A stretch of 63,846 nt of DNA, counting the filler, from Collodictyon triciliatum (lineage: Eukaryota), in NCBI GenBank assembly GCA_043381765.1. It is 6 parts of 6 records of this genome, joined end to end, with 100 filler letters (N's around TTAATTAATTAA, not from the genome) between each part and the next. Parts side by side here need not be neighbours in the genome. Positions count along the whole stretch, not along the records: positions 10,888 to 21,676 come from JBHJMP010002563.1; 5 more parts are not named here. One strand, 5' to 3'. Below, piece by piece: positions 5,941 through 36,200 of the stretch. The position numbers were made by a program, and so were the translations under genes. Numbering within the stretch: the stretch's first letter is position 1; each line of letters opens with the position of its first letter. Under the pieces are notes generated by a model. The model worked only from the letters and a program-made list of their open reading frames with translations, had not been told where the DNA came from and did not search any database.

Positions 5941-8259
5941 TAAGGAGCTCTAGAGGGCGCAAGACTATAGCCAAAAGTTTGAGTTTACCGACGCAGTTGA
6001 TCTTCGTTTTCTCTTAAATAGACCAGTATGATCCTGCGCAAGGATGGAAAGAACACAACCAGGGCTATCCTTCGACAGCACTGCTGACTCGCCCACTCTC
6101 GCGTTTGACTTATTTATTTATTTCTTATTATAATTATTATTATTCAGCAGTTTGTTGAGAACAAGGAAAGCCAAGGATTTCGCTTTTGCTTATGAAAAAA
6201 TAAGACGAAGTGAGTGCAGCGCCAGAGTAAAGTTGAAAATTGGCGAAAATATCTTCATTTTGAGGCCTTGTGTGAGGAAAGAGTTGTTGCGCAAGCACAC
6301 CGGGTCGCGAACAAATACAAGGTTGCTTGAACTAAAAAAAGAGAAAAGAGAAAAGAGAAAAGAGAAAAGAGAAAAGAGAAAAGAGAAAANNNNNNNNNNN
6401 NNNNNNNNNNNNNNNNNNNNNNNNNNNNNNNNNNNNNNNNNNNNNNNNNNNNNNNNNNNNNNNNNNNNNNNNNNNNNNNNNNNNNNNNNNNNNNNNNNNN
6501 NNNNNNNNNNNNNNNNNNNNNNNNNNNNNNNNNNNNNNNNNNNNNNNNNNNNNNNNNNNNNNNNNNNNNNNNNNNNNNNNNNNNNNNNNNNNNNNNNNNN
6601 NNNNNNNNNNNNNNNNNNNNNNNNNNNNNNNNNNNNNNNNNNNNNNNNNNNNNNNNNNNNNNNNNNNNNNNNNNNNNNNNNNNNNNNNNNNNNNNNNNNN
6701 NNNNNNNNNNNNNNNNNNNNNNNNNNNNNNNNNNNNNNNNNNNNNNNNNNNNNNNNNNNNNNNNNNNNNNNNNNNNNNNNNNNNNNNNNNNNNNNNNNNN
6801 NNNNNNNNNNNNNNNNNNNNNNNNNNNNNNNNNNNNNNNNNNNNNNNNNNNNNNNNNNNNNNNNNNNNNNNNNNNNNNNNNNNNNNNNNNNNNNNNNNNN
6901 NNNNNNNNNNNNNNNNNNNNNNNNNNNNNNNNNNNNNNNNNNNNNNNNNNNNNNNNNNNNNNNNNNNNNNNNNNNNNNNNNNNNNNNNNNNNNNNNNNNN
7001 NNNNNNNNNNNNNNNNNNNNNNNNNNNNNNNNNNNNNNNNNNNNNNNNNNNNNNNNNNNNNNNNNNNNNNNNNNNNNNNNNNNNNNNNNNNNNNNNNTCA
7101 GTTGGTTCCACACAGACCGCAGCGAGATTATGAACATCTTCCTCGAAATCTTTCCACCTGATGCCACAAACCGAAGCCCACGACTTGAGCGATGCACTTC
7201 CAACGGGACTGCGCATGAGATACTTGGAAACCAACAGAGGAATTTTCTTCGGGCAAATGCACCGATGGGGTTATGAGAAGGAAAAAAAAAGCTTTCACAG
7301 AGATGCAACCAACGCCGATGATGATATCTTACTTTTTCCTACCCACCGCACACCCTTGGCCATAAGCAGCCGTCCCCGTGACCAAAAGAACAGGCTAATT
7401 ATGCCCGATGAGTTCATTCACACCACGAATCAGGAGCCGGGCAGCGCGTTTGAATAGACCCGATTCTGGAAGACATCCGGCACAAGCACACTTTTGCTTC
7501 CTATAAATTCCAGATTAGTGTCTCAATGAAGGGCTTTGTTTTTTGTTTTTTTTAAAAAAAAAGCTGATTCATTTCGTGGCAGAGTGGCCATCTGTGCCGC
7601 TGCGCAAAACGAGCCCCACCGCAACTTCCTCGTCGGGAATCGGCGGCCTCTTGGGCGGTTACTCCCACCATACTCCCCAAANNNNNNNNNNNNNNNNNNN
7701 NNNNNNNNNNNNNNNNNNNNNNNNNNNNNNNNNNNNNNNNNNNNNNNNNNNNNNNNNNNNNNNNNNNNNNNNNNNNNNNNNNNNNNNNNNNNNNNNNNNN
7801 NNNNNNNNNNNNNNNNNNNNNNNNNNNNNNNNNNNNNNNNNNNNNNNNNNNNNNNNNNNNNNNNNNNNNNNNNNNNNNNNNNNNNNNNNNNNNNNNNNNN
7901 NNNNNNNNNNNNNNNNNNNNNNNNNNNNNNNNNNNNNNNNNNNNNNNNNNNNNNNNNNNNNNNNNNNNNNNNNNNNNNNNNNNNNNNNNNNNNNNNNNNN
8001 NNNNNNNNNNNNNNNNNNNNNNNNNNNNNNNNNNNNNNNNNNNNNNNNNNNNNNNNNNNNNNNNNNNNNNNNNNNNNNNNNNNNNNNATAATAACAATAA
8101 TAATAATAATTGACCAACCAACATCTCCAACATCCTGCACAATATTGAAAGGAAGAACAAAAAATAAAAATATACCAGGCTGGCGAAAATATTCGACCTT
8201 CCAAGCCAATCAATTCCATAGAAGCATGAGAAACGTCAAAGAATAATTTTTACGACATA

Positions 8260-10887: not shown

Positions 10888-11148
10888 ACAAAAACAAAAA
10901 CAAAAACAAAAACAAAAACAAAAACAAAAACAAAAACAAAAACAAAAACAAAAACAAAAACAAAAACAAAAAACAAAAACAAAAACAAAAACAAAAACGA
11001 TGGAAAACAAACAGAAAATCCTTGTTGATAGGCAGACCGGATTCATACCAAAACAAACTAAATCACACCTCGAGCTTCACGAGGCCGCCGATCTCTTTCA
11101 CCTGCCCCTGTGATCATATGTCATCTCCGCTCTGCTCCGCTGCCGCTA

Positions 11149-12747
11149 ATGGTGACGAAAAAGTGGGTTTCCAAACTTGACCAGTCTCCTAGTTTTTACT
11201 ATTTCCCCTCCTTACTCTGATCTTTACTCGATGTTAATTATATGCGTTCTAGAGACAATATTTTTATTTATTTATTTATATTACAAGCCATACCCACTCA
11301 CGAAATATATATATTTTATCAATAATTGTCACACTCGTTTCAACTCACCTATCCTCATCACCACATGTTTTTTTTCTTTCCAAAATCCACTAAACATTCT
11401 CGAGTGCTGTGACTTTCTATGCATAAAAAAACATATTCCTATGATGACTGTCTGACTTGCGTGTCCCATCATCGCCTTTTCAATCGCCCTCATGGTGGAT
11501 GTCTCAATTGAGTGATTACTTTATGTAGACAGTTGAGCGGCTCTTGCAAGACCCATCCATTAATGTTAACCAAACCTCTGATGATGGAAGCTCAGCTCTT
11601 TTTGTGGCCTCCTTTTGGGGTTATGCTTCGATTGTAAAAAAGTTGATAGATCGAGGTTTTTTTTTTTTTGACTTTTATCATGCTACAATTTATTTTGTTA
11701 CACTTTTAGAATGAGACCATATCTATGTGATGAAGGATTATTCCCAGCGCAATTGATCTTGTTTAAACTTTCGAAAACCTACCGAAACACATACAAAAAA
11801 CAACCATACTCTTTTCCTCTATTCCCTCCTCTATTACCAACTCCATCTATCCACATCGCCTCATTGCTGGTCTATCATTTACAGCCATTTGGCATATATT
11901 GCTAATTCTTAGGGGCTGATGTAAACTTCCGCAACAAAGCCAACCTCTGGACTCCCCTTCACGCCGCAGCATTCCAGGAACACGGTCCAGTAATTCTGAA
12001 GCTAATCAGCGCCAAAGGGATTGACTTGGCGGCTGTGGATGCGATGGGTCGAACGGCCGTGGACTTTGCGTCTGTTTCAGAGGCGATATGGCCTCTTTTT
12101 GGGGGTATGTGTTTTTCTCATCAAAAGAAAATCTTTTCTCTCTTCAGTGAAATGGACATTGCCGCAAAATGATAAAAACATATTTGACATGGAACTTATT
12201 CTAGCACAAGGCTGCAAGAGGAGTAGCAAGGAGGATTTGATCGCCAAAGGAGTAATCAGAAAAATAGAGACAGATACAAACCCCGGCGCTCCAGGCAAAC
12301 AAAGTTCTGCTCCACCCGCAGCGACTGGGCGAATGGCAGCGCTTTCCCGTCCTGGTTCTGCATATGTCGTTCAAATCAACCCCAACCAACGCCCATCGTC
12401 CGCGACTCGGTTTGAATATATATAAAAAAAATAAATCATTTACACCCAATCACCCTTAGATATGACCATTCTTTAAAGCACTTTTTTTTTAAAAATGTTC
12501 GTTGGGGGAAAAAAAAAAAAAGGAGCAACACTTCAATTCTTATTTAAAATAAAAAACCAAACCCAGGCGAACGCTGATGAGTGCAAGCGGCCGAAAAACA
12601 GACGGAGGAGACCCGAACGCCGCAGGGGTTGATGTATTGAGCGCCGTTGGGACATCTGTTGATGGGAAAGCCAAACCGCCATCATCAAACACAGGAGCTG
12701 GCTCCGGCTCCGGCTCAAACCCTTCGTTCTCGGTGTGGCGGTCGTAA
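11149..12747 (+). CDS. Ankyrin-repeat protein, multi-exon
   Basis: Exons encode GSSALFVASFWGYASIVKKLIDRG|ADVNFRNKANLWTPLHAAAFQEHGPVILKL...GRTAVDFAS; ends PSFSVWRS*. The first exon junction is uncertain. Confidence 0.8.
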
Positions 12748-13090
12748 TATGCTTGGGTGTGTTGGGCGCAATATCTTGACAATAAAGTTATCATCTGTGA
12801 ATGATGCAGTTTCTTTTCCGAGCTAATACCCGATAAAACAGCCGAAAAAAAAAACAAGAAAAAAACAAGAAAAAAACAAGAAAAAAACAAGAAAAAAACA
12901 AGAAAAAAACAAGAAAAAAACAAGAAAAAAACAAGAAAAAAACAAGAAAATTAAAAAATCAACCGAAGAGTTTCTCTGCTTCCCCTCCCTACAACATAAA
13001 GGAACCCATCATAGTTTGAGTTTACAAACGAGTTTGAAAGCTGCAGGACTCTTTTGCTGACAAAAACTGCCCCGTAAGGCAGAGTGATCC

Positions 13091-13381
13091 ATGCAAGAGC
13101 AAGCCAGACGTCGCCCGCAAGGCTCTCGTCCAAACGATCCTCCCACACGCGAGTCAGCAGAGGGTTCTGCAGAGCTGGAGGAATATCTACGAACGCGCAG
13201 ACTCAACCGCGCAAAGCCAAATCGCCCACCGCAGCCCGTTGTTGTTGTCTTGGCCATCGCAGCCACGTTTCTGTTGGCCTTCTTGGGCCATTTGTCTGAT
13301 GAATCCCTCGTTTATCTTCTGGTTGTCTGCCTCGCACTGATCGGCCTTCTTCTCCTTCTTTCAAAATACACCGCTTCATAA
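13091..13381 (+). CDS. Hypothetical small membrane protein (2 C-terminal hydrophobic segments)
   Basis: 96-aa ATG-initiated ORF, GC-richer than its flanks, with a charged N-half and two TM-like stretches. Confidence 0.5.
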   Translation: MQEQARRRPQGSRPNDPPTRESAEGSAELEEYLRTRRLNRAKPNRPPQPVVVVLAIAATFLLAFLGHLSDESLVYLLVVCLALIGLLLLLSKYTAS

Positions 13382-13902
13382 ATACTTGGCTGCACACACG
13401 AGAAACTCATGTACACAAACAGGTGAATAAGCCGGTGAGCAAAGCCTTCTGTTGGAGGGCACACTCTTTTTCTTCTTTTTCTCTTTTGGCCCGATTATAC
13501 GCTCCCGATAAATACCAATGATGTCGTACACAAAGCCCCTGATTATGCTATTATGATTTGAGAGAGACGGGATATCGTGATGACAAGGTGGCTCTTTCTA
13601 TAGAGTAACTTGTTTTCCTTAGGTTGTACTATATGCTTATCGCGTGATTATCACCGTTTTCATGTGCTCTAAGACATACCGCGTGCTTTACCTCTGCAAA
13701 ACTCTCCAAAGTCATATACGAAGAGCCCTCAGGAAGCTCTGACATCGGTTGTGTCCCTTTTACCCACGCTTGAGAGCCTAAAGGCTGATGGCTTAAAAGT
13801 AGCGAATATCACAACATGCAAGTTTATGTTGCAAAACAAAGATGTATACCTCCCAAAGTATGAGACCTAATTATTTTTTTTTTTTTTGTGACAGCGAAAG
13901 GA

Positions 13903-14964
13903 ATGAATCGCCATGAAGCACTCCGGCACCTTTTGACTCTGTGCACAGCCGTGCTGTTAGGGCTCTATGCTTTTGGCTTCAGCTCAAAAAACTGGAGTGA
14001 GTTTTCTTTCAGCTTCCTCCCATACAACGGGAAAGACGAGGCAAACTTTTTGAATGCCACACGAGCCAACTTTCGTTTTGACTTGCGTGAATACAAGGTA
14101 TCTGGTTACTGTCAAAGCATATATTCAAGTTATCCAGGAGGTCAGAACACAAAAACACACGCCTCTACGGATGAAGGCGCTTATTTGACAAGGAAAGAGG
14201 AACGTAAGTTTTGACTAGTTTTTCGGTTGCTGCTCACACCAGTCAGTTATCCATATTACAATACCATCCTTTTCCTATTTCCTATTTCCTTTCTTCTTTT
14301 GTTTTGTTTTTGTTACGATGTGAAGACGTAATCTGAAACGGCGAAATGTGAATGTTTTATTTATTCTGGCTGGTTCATGTTACCTCATTTCTCTTATTCA
14401 TTATCATCCCATATATTTTTTTCAATAATAGAAAAATTGGTGCTGAAAAAGCGAGACAGAGACATGGTCTGTTTTGATGAGTGTAATGAGACCATATCAT
14501 ATGGCGACTGTGGACATGATTTTTGTGAATCTGCCGCGGTCGTAGGAGGGACTATTCTAACACTGGCTGTGCTGATAGGCCTTTCCATCGCCACCTCTTT
14601 AGGACTGCAGCTTATTGCCTACTTTGTTACTATCAAGATGAGATTTTTCAAAATGTTTGCAGTTATATCTTGGAGCTTTATCACTTTAGCGAGTTTCATG
14701 TCATACATTTTATGGACTCAGCAAGTCCACCCAAAGATTGATATATTTATTCGAAACTGTTCAACATCAAGCTTTGAAAAAAGTGAAATAACAGAAGGGG
14801 GTGGTAATTCTGTTTGCTTAATGCTTATTGTCAGTTTCTTGTCTCTGCTGATCGGACTTTTGTCGTATTTTCGAGACCTTTTGGGTGGAAAGTCTAATGT
14901 AAATACAGAAGTTCGTGCTGAAAGGGATGATGGAGGAGTTAGTAGAGAAGAACAAAGGTACTAA
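13903..14964 (+). CDS. Four-TM claudin/PMP22-like membrane protein, paralogue A (2 exons)
   Basis: Exons 13903-14203 and 14432-14964 (GTAAGT...AG, phase 1). TM1, then W, a Cys-rich first loop and three more TMs. Confidence 0.7.
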
Positions 14965-15649
14965 TATACTAATAATTCATACAATTATTTGCTTTTTAAA
15001 AGATATGTCCATTTACATGTTTCACGGATGATAATTCCCCTCCTCATTCACGCATAGGCAAAGGGACGAAGCTTTCATCGCACTCTTGGATGGGATGCAC
15101 CCAAACGGCTATCGGCCCATAACATGATATGGCCCATTTTCACTTTCAAAGAATCTCTTTTAAAAAACAAACTATACATGTTTTGTATTTTTCTTTTTAT
15201 TGTCTTTTCCCCTTTATTCGATTCATTTTTTCATTTTAATGTTCGCGCTCAATACGTATATCGAGTAAAAATATATAAACTCGATGATACTATTATGTTT
15301 CTTTTATAGTCAAGCTTCTTAACCACACATTGAAATATATATTGAGGTTGCAATCAAGGGCATTTATCATCACCAAATGCGCTGTTACAAAACGACACGT
15401 GATTTGAAGTTGAAGCTTTATTCTCCTCTCCAATCCCCATCAATAAAAGACTAATTTTTCTTCCTATTCAAACCGTATCATTTTTTTTTTTGGGATTGAA
15501 TATAGCATATAGAGACTCGTAATTACAGCATAATGCAAACTTGATTATTTTATTTTAATTGCAAACGATCTATCAGAATGAATTAAGCGTCATATTTTTT
15601 TTTTTCAAGAGGAGGTTTGATGATTATCACTGCATTTTTCATTCGGAGG

Positions 15650-15748
15650 AAAGAAAAGAAAAGAAAAGAAAAGAAAAGAAAAGAAAAGAAAAGAAAAGAA
15701 AAGAAAAGAAAAGAAAAGAAAAGAAAAGAAAAGAAAAGAAAAGAAAAA
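15650..15748. repeat. (GAAAA)n microsatellite
   Basis: Directly visible. Confidence 0.95.
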
Positions 15749-15795
15749 GACAAGCAGTGATGACAATGCGACCTCTAAACACCGCCTTCTTTTCC

Positions 15796-16590
15796 TCACG
15801 CAGCAGCCTCATCATCATTCATGCGATAGACAGCATCCAAAAACTGCTGGTAATTTTCACGATTGCGCATAACGCGGAAAAAGATCAAAGCCGCAGTGAT
15901 GGCAGATATGAGCCAGACAAAGAGACAGCCAAAGACAGAGGTGCTGATGTTTGAGTACTCGACGGAGGCATATTTGCAGCCATCAACAAAGTCATCAATC
16001 TGCGGCTGGGCGCCTGCGTGCCAGAACAAATAGGACAGCAGGGACATTGCGCCGATGGCTGAGAAGCCCTTCACTATCAGCCCCGGCAGGTCGTGGATGC
16101 GGATTTTAGCCTTGCGGAAAAAGAACATGAGCAGAACCACGCCTACGACGCCAATAAGCTGCCCGAGCCACGCAATGCCGGCCATGATTCCGGCCCAGTC
16201 GGCGTCCTTGCAGAACCCGAAAGAACACGCGCTGCTGGTATATTCGATTGTGCGGTCGCACGGCAGACAAAACTCGTCGCCCGTCTCGCTTGGCGGCTTG
16301 CAGCACCCGTCAATCTCTACTTGGAACAGCCCAAAGTACAAGACAACCTGCTTGCCATCGCCCGTGCCCAGGTCCGGATCCACTTTGCAGCGCAGCTCCA
16401 CCCGAGACCACGTCTTTGTCGCGACAATCGCAAGAATCAGCCAGAACAGCACAAAAAGCACGGTCAGCAGCGCAAGGAAGCGTGCAAACTGCCCGCTCGA
16501 AAGCCGCTTCGTCGAGAGGTTGTCTATCCCGTAGACGGACGTCCGTGCATTGATCGGTGGGATGATGGGCGGGCTTTGGTATGGCTCCAT
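15796..16590 (-). CDS. Four-TM claudin/PMP22-like membrane protein, paralogue B (intronless)
   Basis: 264-aa ORF: TM1-TKTW...YFGLF...C..C loop, four TMs; clear similarity to 13903-14964. Confidence 0.78.
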   Translation of the reverse strand: MEPYQSPPIIPPINARTSVYGIDNLSTKRLSSGQFARFLALLTVLFVLFWLILAIVATKTWSRVELRCKVDPDLGTGDGKQVVLYFGLFQVEIDGCCKPPSETGDEFCLPCDRTIEYTSSACSFGFCKDADWAGIMAGIAWLGQLIGVVGVVLLMFFFRKAKIRIHDLPGLIVKGFSAIGAMSLLSYLFWHAGAQPQIDDFVDGCKYASVEYSNISTSVFGCLFVWLISAITAALIFFRVMRNRENYQQFLDAVYRMNDDEAAA

Positions 16591-16950
16591 GGCCGGCGCT
16601 TGGTCTCTGTTTTCTTTGCCCTGTGTGGTTTGTGGGGCTGCTTATTTGCTTGGGTGGTTGGGTTCTTGACAACGAGTCGAAAGGAAAATAAAAGGAGGGA
16701 TATGAAGAAATGGAGGAAAACAAAAGAGGGCGTGTGGCGAGGCTTTTCGGCCAAAGGGAAACTCCCCCATGACGGGTCAGTGATCAACTCCCACAAAGGT
16801 GGCCGCCAGAGTTGGTGCCCTGTCAAAGGATGTTCTGTGATCTTATTCACCAGCCAACATTCAGTGATTTACCCCAAAATAGGGAAAAGTGCCGAGCTTG
16901 GACATAACATATTATTTATATACATTTAATTTACCGGGCAAATAAGAACA

Positions 16951-17022
16951 GCCGCAATGGCCCAGTGGCAAGGCATCTGCCTCGTAAGCAGAGGATCGCG
17001 TGTTCGACTCACGCTTGTGGCA
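16951..17022 (+). tRNA. tRNA-Thr(CGU)
   Basis: Cloverleaf: acceptor GCCGCAA/TTGTGGC, D arm, anticodon arm TCTGC-CT CGT AA-GCAGA, T arm GCGTG-TTCGACT-CACGC, discriminator A, followed by an oligo-T Pol III terminator at about 17033-17040. Confidence 0.95.
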
Positions 17023-17158
17023 TCTGATGTTCTTTTTTTTGCTTTTCTTTCTTTCCACCTCTCTTCTCGGCTTTGGGCTCTGGGCTCGTCTGGCTTGGAA
17101 CAAAGGCAATAACAAACTGGCTTGCTCTCCGCACTTTTTTTTTTCCCTTCTTGAGGCG

Positions 17159-18191
17159 ATGTCTTTGAGCTACCGAATCCAGAGCGTTTTTCAGCTCCAT
17201 ACAGTGGCCCAGAAGCTGGCAGCAGTTGCAAGGAGCGGCGATGTGTATTGTCTTTACGGGTATGTTGCGGGCCCTACTTCCTGCTCTCTCTCTCGCTCTT
17301 GGTGTTTACTTTTTCCTCTTTTTCCTTTTTTTTTTCTTTCTTCTGTCTGTGGCTCATTTCGGCCGCCTAATTTATCATTATCATCTTCACTATCACCACT
17401 TTTATTATTATTCAATCCAATATCATTCGTTTCTTTTGTAAGGGACATCGGCGTTGGAAAAACAGAGTTTACGCGGGGATTAATTCGCAGCTTTTTTTAT
17501 GATGACAAAGCTAGCGTCGACTCCCCAACATATACAATAGAGAAGCTTTACCAGCCCCAACCCTCCGGGTATGTATTCCCTTTTCAAAACTATTGACGCT
17601 ATTACAATCTTTTTTCCATCTATGTATTTTTTTTCTACGTGCGAGTTTGTTATGGCTGAATAATGATAAAGCAATAAACTTGTTTGCATGAATTACAGCC
17701 ACCCGAAAAATATAATCATCCACCACATCGACCTGTATCGCATACAAAACCCTGCACATATCCCAGAACTCGATTTGTTTCAGGACATAGACAAAGGTAT
17801 CTCGCTTCATATGTAACATGCCGTTTGATTGATTATTATAATGTAATAGAAAAAGAAGTAAACCAAACAACATCTTGGGATTGTGTTTAGTCGATGCATA
17901 AATGATATACAGCCTATCTTCCCACCCCGAGACGAAACTAGATAACGATGCATACATATCGCTGTAGATATCTACTTTGTCGAGTGGTCGGAGCATCTGA
18001 CAGAACCTCATCGCCCGAAAACCAGATTGGATATTGAGCTCCACTACTCTTCAGCAGATACAATTACGGCTCCCGACGAACCAAATCCTACCCCTATAGA
18101 GCGCAAGCTTGTCCTTCGTCCGAGTGGGGTCGATTGGGACGTCAGGTTACAAAGACTGTCACCAATCCTCTACCGAAATGGCTTAAACTAG
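17159..18191 (+). CDS. tsaE: tRNA threonylcarbamoyladenosine biosynthesis ATPase TsaE (YjeE) homologue, 4 exons
   Basis: Exons 17159-17259, 17443-17568, 17699-17796, 17968-18191 (all GT-AG, in frame). Motifs GDVYCLYG|DIGVGKT, VDSPTYTI, HIDLYR and FVEW are the TsaE set in order. Confidence 0.9.
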
Positions 18192-18439
18192 ATATTGATA
18201 AAACGAGAAATAACAAGCAATCACACGGGGGTTTAACCTTTATTCGATTCAAAGAAGCAATCACACGGGTTATTTCGATGATCAAATGTCACCGTGATGA
18301 ATAATTGATACTTGGTTTATCTTGATTGGTTAGAGCGATCGTGGATTTTTTCTTTTGAAAAAAAAAAGATATCATGAGTTAGATTTACTAATGCTTTCAA
18401 TTTGTGGATGTAATTTGGCGCATCAAGCCATACGTTAGT

Positions 18440-21400
18440 TTATGCAATCGGAGTAATAGAGGTAGTTCTATTGGCCATCACCCCCTTGAAATACGGAAGA
18501 AAGATTGGGATGATAACAAAGGTACAAAGAACAAGTCCATTGATGAGGATAATCACAACTCCAATCCACTCTTGATTTGACTGATATGACCCCAGCAACG
18601 CGGAAAAGAAGGATATAAAGATGGTGAACAGGCTAATGAGCTCCATCTGGTTTTCTGATTCGTTTCTGTATGGTCGGTATTTTTGCTGTAGCCAGATGGA
18701 CATCTAGTAATATAATAAATTAATCTATTAAAGGGTGACTTCACTCCGGAAACTCAACCATAAAAGGCACCCATTTCTTGAATTTTTGACATGTATTGTG
18801 CCAGTGTATATTATTGCATATGGCTTTGGATGAATAGATAAAAAAAAAACCTGAATAACAAGGATGATCAAGAGATAAAGAATTGATTGGTATGTGTACG
18901 GAACCACGGTAATTATAAGCGAGAACAAGATTCGACGAGACAAAATGACAAGCTCCCAATACCTTTGTTCCTTGGGTGATAGAGATTTTAGACACGGTTG
19001 ATGACAAAACAAACACAAATACATCTATAGTTGAACCTGAAGAGGTACATACCCTTTTGAATGGAAGGTAAAGAAACCCGTACCGCTCATCTCTCATTGC
19101 ATTTGCGTCTGAAATCTCGATGTTTTTCATAATTCTCAAGACAAGTATAGGAAAGGCACCAACAAATAAAACGAAGACAGGCATGGTCAAGGCCAGCATA
19201 CCCAGATATTCATCAGAGGTCGGAGCGCATTTCACCCAAGGAGCAGAGTTCAAATACCAGTTGCCATCTCCTTGGTCATATAGGGTGCAGCTGAACACCC
19301 CAAAAACATCCATGATGATTTGATAGTACATTATGTGAAGTAAAGTCAATGAAACGTATATAACCTAGTGTGTAATGATAAAGACGGATGGTTAATTCCA
19401 GTGCTTCATTTAAATTGTAACGAAATGCTTTTATTTTAAAAAATCATTGTAATAACGAGCTTCCCAATATATCATTCCTGCTGTTTAAGTTCCTACCTTG
19501 TTACGACCTCTCATGGGCAAGGAATGATGGAAGTAGATTCCAATACATAAAAGCACAATGAGCCTACCATAGCTGAAAAACAAAGGAGAGATGGCATCTG
19601 TTGATTTCAATACACATGATATCGTCGGAATAGAAATCGAGCCAAAAGAAAACATGTAATCAATCATTTGACTTAAGCTGTCTGATTTTGTTAAGGACGT
19701 GTAGAGAATTGAAAGCGTCTGCACGTGGAAGACAACAATATTCAATTTACCTATACAAAATTATGTTGTGAGTTAAGCGTAGTTTTTATTTTAAAAAATC
19801 CTTTCCATAGTACTTCAGTTGCATTCATAGATGCTTACAAATATACTTCTTTTATTATTATTAACCACAAAGTTACCAGATTTTGGGGCAGAGAAATGGA
19901 CCAAGGCCCCGATAAACCCGGCCAGTGCGATAGGGGACAATATCAAAGTGGCTAAAATGGAACTATCACCGCAATCAACGCAAGTTCTACCACGATGTCC
20001 ATACCCACTTTTGCATTTAGAGCATACCCTTCCAGTATACCCTTCGTTGCATGGGCTGTCTTCACCAGCATTTAAGTCGTCAAACAAAGTTGCTCTATCA
20101 GCAGCAAGCGTTTGCTCGCATGCGTCTGCGATAGGACACACAACGAGGGATTTTATGTCTACTATGCTTGGAGATGCAAAGCATCCTTTGATACTAACTC
20201 CATCAGTGCATTCACAGTCATCCGGGCATTTAAAGCACATATCTCTGACTCCATAGTAATTTGGAAGGCATTCGCAATAGATGAAATCGTAGTAAACTGA
20301 ATCCATATCTATCTTCACAGTACTGCTGTCTATTTCCTCTGATTGTATAGTTGGACACAAAAAAGAATCCCTTTTGTTCTTTAATTGGTAAGGCTGGCTG
20401 AAAGTGGTGAAGGCTGGTAAAAAGGAATTGTTTGAGTGTCTCATTTTTGTGGACTGCACATTCAGTTTTTCCATTCTCACAAAGTTAATGAAACTGTCAG
20501 GAAGTGAACCCTCGATTGGGTTGTTTGAAACATCCAACTCTACCCAGTCTAATAGATTGGCCACATCATTTAGCTTTGTGAGGCGATTATTACTGAGGGA
20601 TAATACTTTTATCTGTGTAGAGTACTGATATATCCACCACGAAAGCTCGCCAGTTAGGAAATTAGAGTCCAGATAGAGATATTCGTACGTATAGACAATA
20701 GGTTCAGGACTGTACTTTGGGCTGATGAACCAGCCAACTTCCCCCGATAAGCGATTGTTGCTAAGATTAATAACGTCCAAATTCGGTAGCACCCAAAGGT
20801 TTTCCGGCATTGAGCCGATGAGCCAGTTGGAGGATAAGTTAATGTCCTTCAATCTGAAAAACGAAGAGAAGCTTTCAGGAACAACACCAGAGATGGAATT
20901 ATTTGAAAAATTCAAGACTTCGACATTTGGTAGATAAATGAGAGGAGATATAGTTCCATCAAGCAGATTGTTTGACAGATCGATGTGCTTCAATGCGGAT
21001 GATTCAAAGATGGGAATGGAGCCGATCAGTTTGTTTTCGAATAGCTGCAGTCTCTCGAGTTTCTGGCACTTCGAAAAATTGGGGATGGGTCCAGTCAAAT
21101 TGTTCTGGAAGATTGACAATGAAACCAGATTGGGTAGGTTCGAGAAGTGGACTAGTTGTCCTGTAAGTCATAAGTTAGACAGAAAATAACAGTTACAAAT
21201 GCTTTTTTTTCGAACGATAAAACAATACTTTCACAATTTCAATGCCATTATTATGGAAATAAAACAACCAACTAGTTTGGTCCGAGCTAATACTAGTGTC
21301 TTCAAAGAGGGAATCGCTTGGAAATCAGGAATCGTTCCTTTATAGGATAAAAAATGTTGTTAGATAGCTTTGTAATCGTTTCAATACCAACCATAAACTT

Positions 21401-21530
21401 TATGATTACTAACATATGAAGATGCTTTATAAAGAAAAGAAGCTTTATACCTTGTATAGGATTTCCTGATAAGTCAAGAAGTTCAATATTTGGTAAATTC
21501 TCAAAATGTGGGATAGGGCCTGCGAAGAAC
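18440..21530 (-). CDS. LRR + Cys-rich + multi-pass TM receptor-like protein, 5'-truncated by the scaffold end
   Basis: Plant-type LRRs (LSNNLLDGTI, LSSNWLIGSMP), Cys-rich CNEGYTGRVCSKCKSGY, then many TM helices with YGFLYLPFKR|EQRYWELVILSRR and RPY motifs. Confidence 0.85.
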
Positions 21531-21676
21531 GCATCACTTATTTTTTTTCTCATTATGAGGGGTATGGACAAAAATGACGATATGTTAAATTTGAGTTCGA
21601 TGGAAAAATTATTGAACCGTTTGTTTAGTTAAGAATTTTTTTGGTTAAGTTGGTTAAGTAAAAAAAAATAAAAAAA

Positions 21677-31571: not shown

Positions 31572-32276
31572 ACGCCCCAAGTCAACACCGCTTGCGTCTG
31601 GCTGGAATCGAACCTGCATCCCACAGTCACCCGAATAAACCCATCCCTTCAAAGCCGGCAGAAAAGGAGTGAACCCTCCATCCAAACATTGCGCGCCAAA
31701 AGAGTTCATAACGGTTCACACTAAATATGGAAAATTCCACAACGGCTTCTGCACCGAGTTGCATCTCTTTCATTGAATGCTGGCAGAGAACGCGCCAGCT
31801 GTGCGGCCTTGGGGGAGGCCTATTTCGCTCGGATTGTCGGATAAAGATGCAAACCAGACTATCACAGAGGAAAGAAACTCGATGGAAGTCCCTGTGTATT
31901 GGTTGATTCGCCGCAACTGCCGTTCCCTTGCCGCAGGCGCCACTTCCCCCCGCACGAGCCCAGAGCCGGATGGGAGAGACTGTGTTGTGCGCACGCGGGT
32001 TGTGAACGGATCATTTCTTCCTGACCGCACGATTTATTTCTCTCATAGACCAAGGGAAGAAACCCCACGCAGAAGGAAGCGATAGGGTCTCGAAGAACGT
32101 CCCGGCCTTCGTCTCCTTTGCCCAGCGCCACTTCTTCCGCTCCTTTCTTTTCTTGGAAGCTTGAACCGCACTCAGCCCGGATAGTTGGACCGGATTTCCC
32201 AGACAGCCCACCTTTTCCGAAGCACCCCAGCAAAAACTGTACTGGGTCACCCTCCCCGGCCGAGAGAGAAAGGAAG

Positions 32277-32421
32277 ATGTCGTCCGGGTCAAAAAACGAT
32301 CGCTTCTGGCTGGATCCCAACCTCGCTGCGGTGGAAGCGGCGCCGCCCGTGAAGCCAAAGAACTTTCCTGGTGTGGAGGAGATCACCTTCAACGCAGCAG
32401 AAGAGCGCAAACAGGTACGCG

Positions 32422-32510
<89 letters not shown>

Positions 32511-33023
32511 TTCTCTCTTTTCTCTCTCTCTTTTCTCTCTCTCTTTTCTCTCTCTCTCTCTNNNNNNNNNNNNNNNNNNNNNNNNNNNNNNNNNNNNNNN
32601 NNNNNNNNNNNNNNNNNNNNNNNNNNNNNNNNNNNNNNNNNNNNNNNNNNNNNNNNNNNNNNNNNNNNNNNNNNNNNNNNNNNNNNNNNNNNNNNNNNNN
32701 NNNNNNNNNNNNNNNNNNNNNNNNNNNNNNNNNNNNNNNNNNNNNNNNNNNNNNNNNNNNNNNNNNNNNNNNNNNNNNNNNNNNNNNNNNNNNNNNNNNN
32801 NNNNNNNNNNNNNNNNNNNNNNNNNNNNNNNNNNNNNNNNNNNNNNNNNNNNNNNNNNNNNNNNNNNNNNNNNNNNNNNNNNNNNNNNNNNNNNNNNNNN
32901 NNNNNNNNNNNNNNNNNNNNNNNNNNNNNNNNNNNNNNNNNNNNNNNNNNNNNNNNNNNNNNNNNNNNNNNNNNNNNNNNNNNNNNNNNNNNNNNNNNNN
33001 NNNNNNNNNNNNNNNNNNNNNNN

Positions 33024-33069
<46 letters not shown>

Positions 33070-33156
33070 TTCTCTCTTTCTCTCTTTCTCTCTTTTCTCT
33101 CTCTCTTTTCTCTCTCTCTTTTCTCTCTCTCTTTTCTCTCTCTCTTTTCTCTCTCT

Positions 33157-33238
<82 letters not shown>

Positions 33239-36200
33239 CCTTTGTCCAACTCCGTCTGCGCGACCAACAAGCAAATCTGCTGATCAAATCCTGCGCCTGC
33301 AGCTCACGGCGGATGAGGAGGACATTGCGCTGCTGACCGTGGACGAAGCCCTGTTCCTGAGCTTCTCATGGGTGGGCGAGCTGATGCACTGGCTGCTGCT
33401 ACTGGCCACGGGCGGGCTGTACTGGCTGGTCACGCGCTGGGTGCGAGGGCTGGAGGCGGCTGTACGCTACCGCCGTGTTGCCTCGCCCGACCCCGCGGCA
33501 GACTACGTGCTGGCCTACTCCATCGACCGCTTCGAGGAGATCTGCCCTATCCGCTCCATCGACCCGCGCACAGGTACTCCTGAGTGGGTTCCGGTGAGTC
33601 AGGCCCGCTCGGCCGCCGCAGCATCCTCAGCGTCGCCATCGGCCTTCCCATTCCCCCGCATGTTCGAGTGGCGCCACGAGCGCTTCTGGTTCGACACGGC
33701 CGCGGGCAAGTGGGTGCGGCTGCAGTTTGCCGTGAATCAGGCGTCGCACCGGCTCCACGACATGGCTGCCACACTGGCCTTCCGCAACTGGGACGCCATG
33801 AAGGCTGCCCAGACCGGGGCGGCGGCGCCTCTGGGCGATCTCTACAAGGGTGACCTCTCATGGGACGATTACACCCGCGACCTGACCTACGGCATCAACA
33901 TCATCGACATCAAGCCCAAGCCCTTCATCGTCCTCATCAAGGACGAGGCCCTCAAGCCCTTCTTTGTCTTCCAGATCTTCTCCCTGATTGTATGGTACTT
34001 CCAGGTTTGTCCTCAGTCTCTCTATCTCCTTCCTTCCTTCATCTTTCATTTCATGATTTTGGGGGCCAGGCTCATGGACATAATCCTTCGCCCCATGCTC
34101 CATTTGTGCAGGCGTACTACCTCTACACGGGCATCGTCTTTATGTTCACCATCATCTCGCTCTGCTCCACATCCTTTGTGACGTGGCGAAACCAGCACAG
34201 TCTGCAGCGCATCGCAAAGTCCGAGGTCCCTGTCACAAAGCTCTTCTTGTCAAACAAGCAGAGCACAGAGGTCATTTCGCCCGAAGTACTGCACCGCAAT
34301 GGCCGCAGCAAGGGCACTGAACGCACCCGCCCCTGGGCTCCCGTCCCGACCTTCCATCGCGAGGTCATCAGCAGTGCAAAGCTCCATCCGGGCGACTTGA
34401 TTGAGATCACCAACGGCACCACCATCCCTTGCGACATGATCCTGCTGTCTGGAAGTGTTGTCATCAACGAAGCCATGCTTACCGGTGAGAGTGCCCCAGT
34501 CCAAAAGACATCTATTCCTTACCATCATGGTGATGGCCCAAGCACAGACCAGAGCTCCTGGTTCAGACTCGGCTCCGACCGCGATGCAAAGTATGTTTTG
34601 TACTCGGGCACAAAAGTTGTCCAGGCAAAGCCCCAACCTGCAGCCATTTGCAACCCCATCGCAGAGCGACAACAATCTTCTGATCAGTATACATATAAAA
34701 ATCCTCAAACCATCTGGCAGGTACCCATCGTTTTCGATCTGATGATAATCAAAAAAAATTAACATTCAATTGAATCAGCCTTCTCAGGTTTTCTTTGATT
34801 TTTGTTCCATTTTTTTACATAAATAATACCCATCCATCAGTTCTCCATGGACCAAGCAGCGGCCTCATATTCCGAACATCTTAAAACTACAGATATATCT
34901 GAAGCTGATATCGAGAAAAGGGTTCAAGTTTTCCTCGATTCCTTCAAGAATAGAGAGAAATCTCTCCCCATTATTGGCATGGTCATCAAGACAGGCTTCA
35001 ACACCGCCAAGGGGAAGCTGATTCGCGCTATACTCTATCCAAAGCCCTCAAAATTCGATTTTGACAAGCAAATGGTGAAGTTTATGATCATTCTAATCGC
35101 CGCTACCCTCGCTGGGTGTCTCGCCACTGTTGGATTCTACGAAGACCAAGGAGCTTCCAGCTTGGATACACTCTTAAGTTGCTTGAATATTGTTACTGTT
35201 GCCATCCCCCCTGCTCTCCCACTGGCTCTCTCCGTTGCCCTCACGACTACTTTTTCTGAGCTGCAGCTCAAGAAAATCTTTTGTATCAACCCGAATCGTA
35301 TCGTCCCTGCCGGTCGTGTGAACACTCTGTGCTTTGACAAGACAGGAACTCTGACTGAAGATGGTCTTACCCTTAAGAGTGTCCATACACTCACAGCCTC
35401 CGATGAACATGACGTTCCTCATGACGGAAACCCAAAGTCCAAATCCATGATGTCACACACCACACTCAGTCAGCCAGAGACAGACCTTGTCACATTGTAT
35501 CAGAAGGTTTCTACATCTGAGCAAAAAACACGTTTGTTTACTAATAAGACTTACATGACAAGAGACGGTATTATTGCTCCTTGTAGACTCGGGATGGCCT
35601 ATGTTGTCGCTGCATGCCACAGGTATTGTCCTTAGGGGAAAATGGCATTCAATTTATTTTTTGTCAGTAATCTACATATCGACGATAAAAGAAATTCCAG
35701 AAACCTTTACATTTCCTTTAAGGGAAAACAATAATTTTCTCATATAGATATGCTCTATTGATAAAAAAAAATATATATGTTATATATAGCCTTGCTGTCC
35801 TCGAAGAGGATGACCTCAACGACGATGACATCTCCGTCGATATGGAGAAGGAAGGAAAGAAGAAGCCAGAGAAGGAGCCCACTGGAGAATATAAAGAGCA
35901 GTTTGTTGGAGACCCACTCGAGATTCAAATGTTCGCCCAGTCTGGTTGGAGATTCGATACTAGGTCGTCAATCAACAAGAAAAGAGGGATGTTTGGCTCT
36001 CAGGTTTTTTTTAAAAAAAAAAATGTTTCAGTACGATGAAATGGCGAATAAAATAAGAATAACCCCTTAATGCTACTATAGTGCTTATATCATAATCTTC
36101 AAGAGTTCGTAGATTTTTTTTTAAAAAAAAAAAAAAGATAATTATTTAAGGCAAGTTCTTAAATCATGACACATCTTAGGTTTGGGATGACACCAATCTT

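Follow-up and report, generated by a model that had tools for sequence, protein, structure and literature searches.

Gene structure

The stretch of DNA studied here, referred to below as the window, comprises 63,846 nucleotides (nt) from the genome assembly of Collodictyon triciliatum (GenBank GCA_043381765.1), in which six parts of six records are joined end to end with 100 filler letters between one part and the next. On the part taken from record JBHJMP010002563.1 (positions 10,888 to 21,676), the plus strand carries between 17159 and 18191 a gene for TsaE. In bacteria, TsaE (YjeE, YdiB or HI0065; PF02367, TIGR00150) is the ATPase subunit of the TsaB-TsaD-TsaE threonylcarbamoyl-transfer complex. 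The gene consists of four exons and three GT..AG introns, an arrangement proposed earlier in a sequence-only reading of the window, and its coordinates proved right to the base, both in the sequence and in the cDNA joints described below. The spliced coding sequence (CDS) of 549 nt, from the ATG at 17159-17161 to the TAG stop codon at 18189-18191, gives a protein of 182 amino acids (aa).

The coding part of exon 1 (17159..17259) runs from Met1 to two bases into the codon of Gly34. It encodes strand β1 and helix α1 and ends within the Walker A motif, the Gly34 codon, first of that motif, being split by intron 1 (17260..17442; 183 nt, phase 2, GTATGT..AAG), which is open in frame. Exon 2 (17443..17568) contributes the Walker A motif GDIGVGKT (residues 34-41) and the SPTYT loop (residues 61-65; 17522-17536), and is followed by intron 2 (17569..17698; 130 nt, phase 2, GTATGT..CAG). 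Exon 3 (17699..17796) encodes HIDLYR (residues 85-90; 17724-17741) and an acidic segment equivalent to helix α3 of bacterial TsaE, with five acidic residues and one basic residue in 23. Intron 3 (17797..17967; 171 nt, phase 1, GTATCT..TAG) separates it from exon 4 (17968..18191), in which the (V)EWSE motif (residues 114-117; 17982-17993), the last strands, a lineage-specific loop and a C-terminal helix with G-x-D-W-x-x-R-L precede the stop codon. All of these features lie on the plus strand, and all four motifs quoted in the sequence-only reading (GDIGVGKT, SPTY, HIDLYR and VEW) were found at these residues. The GC content is 0.48 in the CDS and 0.30-0.37 in the introns.

Expression and start of translation

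Ten public sequencing runs were found to hold words sampled from this stretch, and positions 16700-18500 were compared with the Logan contigs of four of them, X1 to X4. X1 and X2, two small runs from one study, contain a third and a quarter, respectively, of these words, which is roughly the exonic share of the stretch; the remaining runs are freshwater and lake metagenomes. One contig in each of X1 and X2 shows exactly three joints, in which 17259 is followed by 17443, 17568 by 17699 and 17796 by 17968, all of them bordered by GT..AG. Contigs of X3 and X4, which are runs of DNA type, pass without a break through intron 3 and exon 4. None of the ten runs is recorded as RNA, and the RNA label of X1 and X2 is only a guess; we consider these two to be cDNA because of a template-switch-oligo tail, a poly(A) tail and the intron-less joints. 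The first of these tails is a 23-nt loose end of the X2 contig at 17065, identical to the 3' end of the SMART template-switch oligo as given in Table 1 of PMC8579666. The second is a terminal run of 22 T, at 18221, in a neighbouring X1 contig; it represents the poly(A) tail of a transcript that converges on TsaE from the minus strand.

The cDNA contigs span 17065 to 18168 or 18172, with 16700-17064 and everything beyond 18172 outside their cover. Strand invasion by the oligo is unlikely at the 5' end, since the bases before 17065 are TCT and not GGG. The mRNA thus starts at about 17065, and its leader (5' untranslated region, 17065..17158, plus strand) is 94 nt long and free of ATG, so that Met17159 is the first AUG. 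The TsaE gene is therefore expressed, and its translation begins at 17159 without an N-terminal extension. The sequence-only reading had pointed to an in-frame ATG at about 17027 as a possible upstream start. Such an ATG does exist (17027-17029), 44 codons upstream in an open frame and 5 nt past a tRNA-Thr gene, but it lies outside the mRNA. The view that the domain starts at Met17159 with no evident presequence is now firmer, as the 5' end mapped at 17065 excludes the upstream codon, and the three predicted junctions were all matched.

Compared with the window, the cDNAs carry L47F, A57V and one silent change (X2 only), at positions 17482, 17511-17512 and 18059. These differences indicate that X1 and X2 derive from a close relative or strain and not from the individual that was assembled.

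Family assignment

Exon 2 alone (41 aa) matched the Pfam TsaE family PF02367 with 34.4 bits (cut-off 26.6) over profile positions 29-64, and exon 3 matched the colinear next stretch, positions 68-90, with 16.4 bits. Exons 1 and 4, each compared alone with Pfam, gave no match. The best NCBIfam models were two TsaE equivalogs, among them TIGR00150 (cut-off 60.1), with which separate pieces of the protein were compared, giving 24.3 and 13 bits, below the cut-offs. The six best sequence matches in the PDB were TsaE chains, from Thermotoga maritima, Haemophilus influenzae and Bacillus subtilis.

For the spliced protein we used an in-house profile of 151 positions, built from 116 bacterial TsaE among the best 120 of 5939 profile-search matches. 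The score was 94.4 bits (E 2.5e-31) in one domain, with residues 6-138 of the model placed on profile positions 2-129, unbroken across the three exon junctions. In a 50-row alignment that included the translations of the four window exons, the protein keeps all 17 of the near-invariant columns (at least 90% conserved). The Walker A pattern G-x4-G-K-T/S, the S-P-T-(F/Y)-T loop, HxDxYR and the E-W pair are all present. On these grounds the predicted product is a complete TsaE-family P-loop ATPase of 182 aa, as the sequence-only reading had claimed. It resembles bacterial TsaE in size class, fold, order of motifs (Walker A, SPT(Y/F)T, HxDxYR, EW), acidic α3 surface and C-terminal helix. The gene, unlike its bacterial counterparts, is nuclear and monocistronic, with three spliceosomal introns and no adjacent tsaB or tsaD, and the protein differs in a loop insertion of about 12 residues before the last strand and in an acid-poor N-terminal helix.

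It might be argued that such a gene is an artefact: bacterial contamination, an assembly error, a pseudogene in decay or a gene of some other P-loop family. What speaks for this is only the prior set by reviews that hold TsaE to be found in bacteria only. Against it, cDNA shows exact removal of the introns, genes of eukaryotic, nuclear type flank the locus, the reading frame is intact with 17 of 17 family-invariant residues in place, and TsaE profiles were the sole significant family matches. With the Pfam match, the cDNA joints, the profile score and the conserved residues all in agreement, we rule this explanation out, its probability being negligible; the early claim that the gene is not a bacterial contaminant was correct.

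Relatives in eukaryotes and bacteria

In a HMMER pass, the open reading frame (ORF) running from exon 1 through intron 1 into exon 2 was compared with 1.84 billion representative proteins. Seven proteins matched at E ≤ 1e-3, two of them from named eukaryotes. The best match was a transcript ORF of Diphylleia rotans, of the group CRuMs (EukProt EP00002; P0001, 171 aa, E 6.3e-11). Its alignment with the spliced window protein shows identity at 81 of 166 positions, spread over the four exons and reaching the C-terminal G-x-D-W-x-x-R-L helix. Both proteins share DSPTYTIEK, IHHIDLYR.QNP.HI.ELD, G.DW..RL and a short N-terminus. The Diphylleia protein, known as a transcript ORF only, differs in lacking the TAPDEPNPTPIE-type loop insertion. 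The matches also included a Blastocystis sp. protein annotated as hypothetical (P0005), so that the guess that sporadic eukaryotic homologues might exist turned out to be right.

The best 120 of the 5939 TsaE found by profile search were mostly of marine Pelagibacter type, together with P0054 and P0012, two Logan proteins of eukaryote-like look. The ORF of P0012 starts where exon 2 of the window gene starts. Another Logan protein, P0004, matches exon 2 only, and the likeness ends at the residue where intron 2 of the window gene sits. Both P0004 and P0012 have the look of genes called on eukaryotic DNA in its unspliced form, with introns placed as in the window gene. A word-index protein search with exon 2 gave three candidates, none of them significant, and three metagenome loci with the back-translated DSPTYTIEK pattern were dismissed as chance, the match being confined to the motif.

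We also considered whether a bacterial TsaE was transferred horizontally into protists, once or more, and works there outside the mitochondrion in a role other than the reset of Qri7, the mitochondrial TsaD orthologue. The small number of eukaryotic records (two named eukaryotes among the seven matches) would fit such a history, and so would the nearest TsaE clusters of the ESM Atlas, which are all bacterial. On the other side stand the three spliceosomal introns, the host-like composition of the gene and an orthologue in a named eukaryote. We regard this explanation as unlikely.

The three-dimensional model was made for the Diphylleia orthologue in place of the window protein, with the 50-row alignment. 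It reached a predicted local distance difference test score (pLDDT) of 91.5 and a predicted template modeling score (pTM) of 0.88. All nine PDB structures that matched it at E ≤ 0.001 were TsaE (TM score 0.71-0.86); the tenth had an E-value of 0.02. At the N-terminus of the model, a strand (residues 2-5) and a helix (8-20) have pLDDT above 90. In this model, therefore, the N-terminus is a confident part of the fold and would leave no free presequence.

The segment before the P-loop is poor in acidic residues, with one such residue in the window protein and one in that of Diphylleia, compared with a bacterial median of three. One acidic residue or fewer was found in none of 125 bacterial proteins and in two of 80 named loci. 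The net charge of the N-terminal segment of the window protein, +2, is unremarkable, and the acid-poor trait is not found in Blastocystis.

Phylogenetic position

One genome per prokaryotic species was scanned with a five-row alignment as the query, and the best 80 of 593 confirmed loci were retained. Among these loci related to the Diphylleia protein, Alphaproteobacteria account for 15 of the top 20 and for 34 of the 80. A careful maximum-likelihood tree was then calculated from 96 rows and 175 columns, with the long rows P0013 and P0007 left out; the shortness of the TsaE protein is a caveat on all trees.

The window and Diphylleia proteins are sisters in the trees (support 100/91 and 99/86, the former in the careful tree), and P0012 joins them in the careful tree with 97/91. 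Blastocystis with P0054 and three Pelagibacter-like rows follow (94/80), and after them an alphaproteobacterial metagenome-assembled genome (MAG; 84/57) and two Rickettsiales MAGs (89/80 and 91/75). A branch with support of 98/98 splits the tree into a mostly alphaproteobacterial side of 55 rows (alpha- and gammaproteobacteria with a few others) and a side of 41 rows from other phyla. When nine rows of unusual composition or great branch length were taken out, the group of the window, Diphylleia and P0012 was joined by an alphaproteobacterial MAG (90/76) and a Rickettsiales MAG (94/85), within a mostly alphaproteobacterial cluster of 46 rows (94/85). Forcing the five eukaryote-like rows together cost 1.54 log-likelihood units (approximately unbiased test, p 0.484), and a single origin of these rows is therefore not rejected.

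By sequence, the window protein belongs to a small eukaryotic TsaE clade in which Diphylleia rotans is its nearest member, and this clade appears, with moderate support, to lie among alphaproteobacterial TsaE. Given this position, the simplest account is that the gene came from the mitochondrial ancestor and that animals, fungi and plants have lost it, an interpretation for which support is likewise moderate. Of the phylogenetic comparison outlined in the sequence-only reading, the part against Alphaproteobacteria thus yielded a moderate affinity, and the rows held no cyanobacteria. Any horizontal transfer would have to be old, as monophyly with the Blastocystis-type sequences is not rejected.

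A TsaE of cyanobacterial or algal origin, serving the tRNAs of a plastid in a host that is or once was photosynthetic, is another conceivable source. DNA of the host occurs in freshwater and lake metagenomes, a habitat of many algae, and the trees held no cyanobacterial TsaE. However, the closest relative is Diphylleia rotans and another is Blastocystis, both of them non-photosynthetic and without plastids. The protein starts at the domain and has no signal or transit peptide, and the nearest named bacteria are Alphaproteobacteria, with no cyanobacterium in the best 80 genome loci (to which the bias of the peptide pattern used to choose them applies). A plastid-related origin is in our opinion very improbable.

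Genomic surroundings

The window has 202 ORFs of 85 aa or more, and a Pfam scan covering 149 of them revealed Arf, SAP18, ankyrin, leucine-rich repeat, CENP-T/S histone fold, OPT and Yippee/Mis18 domains, a P-type ATPase spread over several exons, and pieces of acyl-CoA and 3-hydroxyacyl-CoA dehydrogenases. For a piece of the P-type ATPase, the ESM Atlas gave no taxon narrower than Eukaryota. The window is ordinary eukaryotic nuclear DNA.

Upstream of TsaE, a tRNA-Thr(CGU) gene (16951..17022, plus strand; found by ARAGORN and scored by the Rfam tRNA model at 62.1 bits) bounds the promoter region. A T-run comes after it at 17030-17039, with the ATG at 17027 in the interval. The end of the tRNA gene and the 5' end of the TsaE mRNA are 43 nt apart, which places a Pol II start right behind a Pol III gene. 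The anticodon loop of this tRNA has U36-A37-A38, which makes it one of the ANN-decoding tRNAs that receive N6-threonylcarbamoyladenosine (t6A). A functional link between TsaE and the adjacent tRNA gene was considered and rejected, the neighbourhood being probably a coincidence.

On the downstream side, the convergent minus-strand transcript is polyadenylated at 18221, that is, 30 nt beyond the TsaE stop codon, and the interval 18168-18172 contains the ends of two cDNA contigs and the start of one DNA contig. The pattern at 18168-18221 suggests that the 3' ends overlap or that a local variant breaks up the assembly graphs.

Two further regions of the window deserve mention. At 6134-7338, where the window is richest in AT (GC 0.22 at 6001-8000), all six frames are open for about 1.1 kb, and positions 6337-6389 form an exact (AAAAGAG)n array; the region is of low complexity and not a gene. 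Between 31865 and 34178, immediately upstream of the P-type ATPase exons, long overlapping frames are open on both strands, the longest of 710 aa and none with a Pfam match, and the sequence at 32001-34000 is strongly skewed (GC skew -0.25, AT skew -0.32).

Discussion

In this work, we describe a well-documented TsaE of a eukaryote, with introns proven by cDNA, a mapped 5' end and no N-terminal extension. According to Thiaville et al., neither Eukarya nor Archaea possess homologues of TsaE and TsaB (PMC4615747), and the same three-system picture of t6A synthesis is drawn in a 2022 review (PMC9654439), in a paper on KEOPS of A. thaliana and in "The life and times of a tRNA" (PMC10275265). The supposed absence of TsaE from eukaryotes is the ground on which it has been proposed as an antibacterial target (PMC6009658). 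Our literature searches found no paper describing a eukaryotic TsaE. The paper on the mitochondrial proteome of Andalucia godoyi does not mention it in its main text or in the seven supplementary files searched, and a preprint on chloroplast modification in Arabidopsis does not name TsaE, TsaB or TsaD.

What such a protein may do can be approached from the bacterial complex. TsaE binds to the TsaB-TsaD pair in an ATP-dependent way and is required for multi-turnover t6A synthesis in bacteria. There, TsaE is located at the interface of TsaB and TsaD, with ATP sandwiched between TsaE and TsaD, and the totally conserved SPT(F/Y)T loop extends into TsaD's active site (PMC6009658). The same study describes an acidic surface near helix α3 as an electrostatic competitor of tRNA, an ATPase that is switched on by the complex, an E-W pair (E108/W109 in E. 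coli TsaE), and an HxDxYR motif that holds an Asp and the switch Tyr. The window protein keeps every sequence feature of this mechanism, including the acidic α3 segment, and we therefore infer the same reset cycle on a transferase of TsaD type. ATP would be bound at the interface of TsaE and the threonylcarbamoyl transferase, as in bacteria, while the SPTYT loop would reach into the active site of the transferase and the acidic α3 surface would compete with tRNA. Hydrolysis of ATP would then reset the transferase for the next round of t6A synthesis at position 37.

The partner that presents itself is Qri7, which is the only TsaD orthologue known in eukaryotes according to the accounts in PMC4615747 and PMC9654439. 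It would be the transferase most plausibly served by the TsaE described here, with or without a TsaB-like partner. In the eukaryotic cytosol, turnover of the transferase is supported by a different ATPase, Bud32 of KEOPS, an unrelated protein of kinase fold. In our interpretation the gene is probably an expressed nuclear relic of the mitochondrial ancestor, and its product an ATP-driven reset factor for Qri7, which is the role that comparison with the bacterial mechanism makes likely. A mitochondrial site of action is suggested by the alphaproteobacterial affinity in the trees and by logic, and not by a targeting signal. The more bacterial-like t6A pathway that the sequence-only reading proposed for this lineage stays hypothetical.

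A TsaE acquired by horizontal transfer and acting elsewhere in the cell has to be weighed again at this point. All residues that touch ATP and TsaD in bacteria are conserved in the window protein, which is hard to explain without a partner of TsaD type, and the corresponding place on the cytosolic Kae1 is served by Bud32 in the descriptions of PMC6009658 and PMC10275265. Several observations nevertheless weigh against a relic of the mitochondrial ancestor that resets Qri7, and some of them favour a transfer. The first AUG of the mRNA tagged by the template-switch oligo coincides with the start of the domain, which in the Diphylleia model begins within the fold, and the N-terminus of the window protein aligns with the start of bacterial TsaE. 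Without a cleavable presequence, import into mitochondria would need an internal or non-cleaved signal. The acid-poor N-terminal segment is the sole hint of localisation, and a weak one. The nodes that decide the alphaproteobacterial placement are not strongly supported (84/57 to 94/85), the bacterial rows of the trees were selected with a single peptide pattern and for their resemblance to the Diphylleia protein, and they included no cyanobacterial TsaE; P0054 and P0012 are of putative eukaryotic origin. Bacterial TsaE touches TsaB and TsaD asymmetrically and binds neither homodimer (PMC6009658), which argues against a simple docking on a Qri7 homodimer. No PF00814 protein (TsaB/TsaD/Kae1) was found among the ORFs of the window covered by the Pfam scan. 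As for the gene model itself, the final 20 nt or so of the CDS extend beyond the ends of the cDNA contigs at 18168 and 18172.

The mitochondrial systems of yeast and human are described as working with Sua5 and Qri7 and without TsaE (PMC9654439). One scenario, which we put forward tentatively, is that scattered protists, C. triciliatum, Diphylleia and Blastocystis among them, have kept TsaE and that the condition with Sua5 and Qri7 only is derived in animals and fungi. In C. triciliatum, an internal signal would bring the TsaE, devoid of a presequence, into the organelle, where it would reset Qri7 and might do so without any TsaB. As part of the same scenario, and with equal reserve, some of the protist lineages that keep TsaE would be those with unusually gene-rich mitochondrial genomes and full tRNA sets. 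TsaE may have been retained along with mitochondria whose own tRNA set is still complete, a possibility raised in connection with data from PMC4779616.

The novelty of the case is lessened by homologous records from Diphylleia and Blastocystis that were already present, unremarked, in public databases, and the case is also weakened by the fact that function and location are inferred. Still, a spliced and expressed nuclear TsaE with all the catalytic and TsaD-contacting motifs, and with relatives in at least two other eukaryotic groups, shows that the statement that eukaryotes have no TsaE is too broad. If eukaryotic TsaE works with Qri7, the synthesis of t6A in mitochondria would not be uniformly a minimal system of two proteins, and this would provide a natural test of TsaE action without TsaB.

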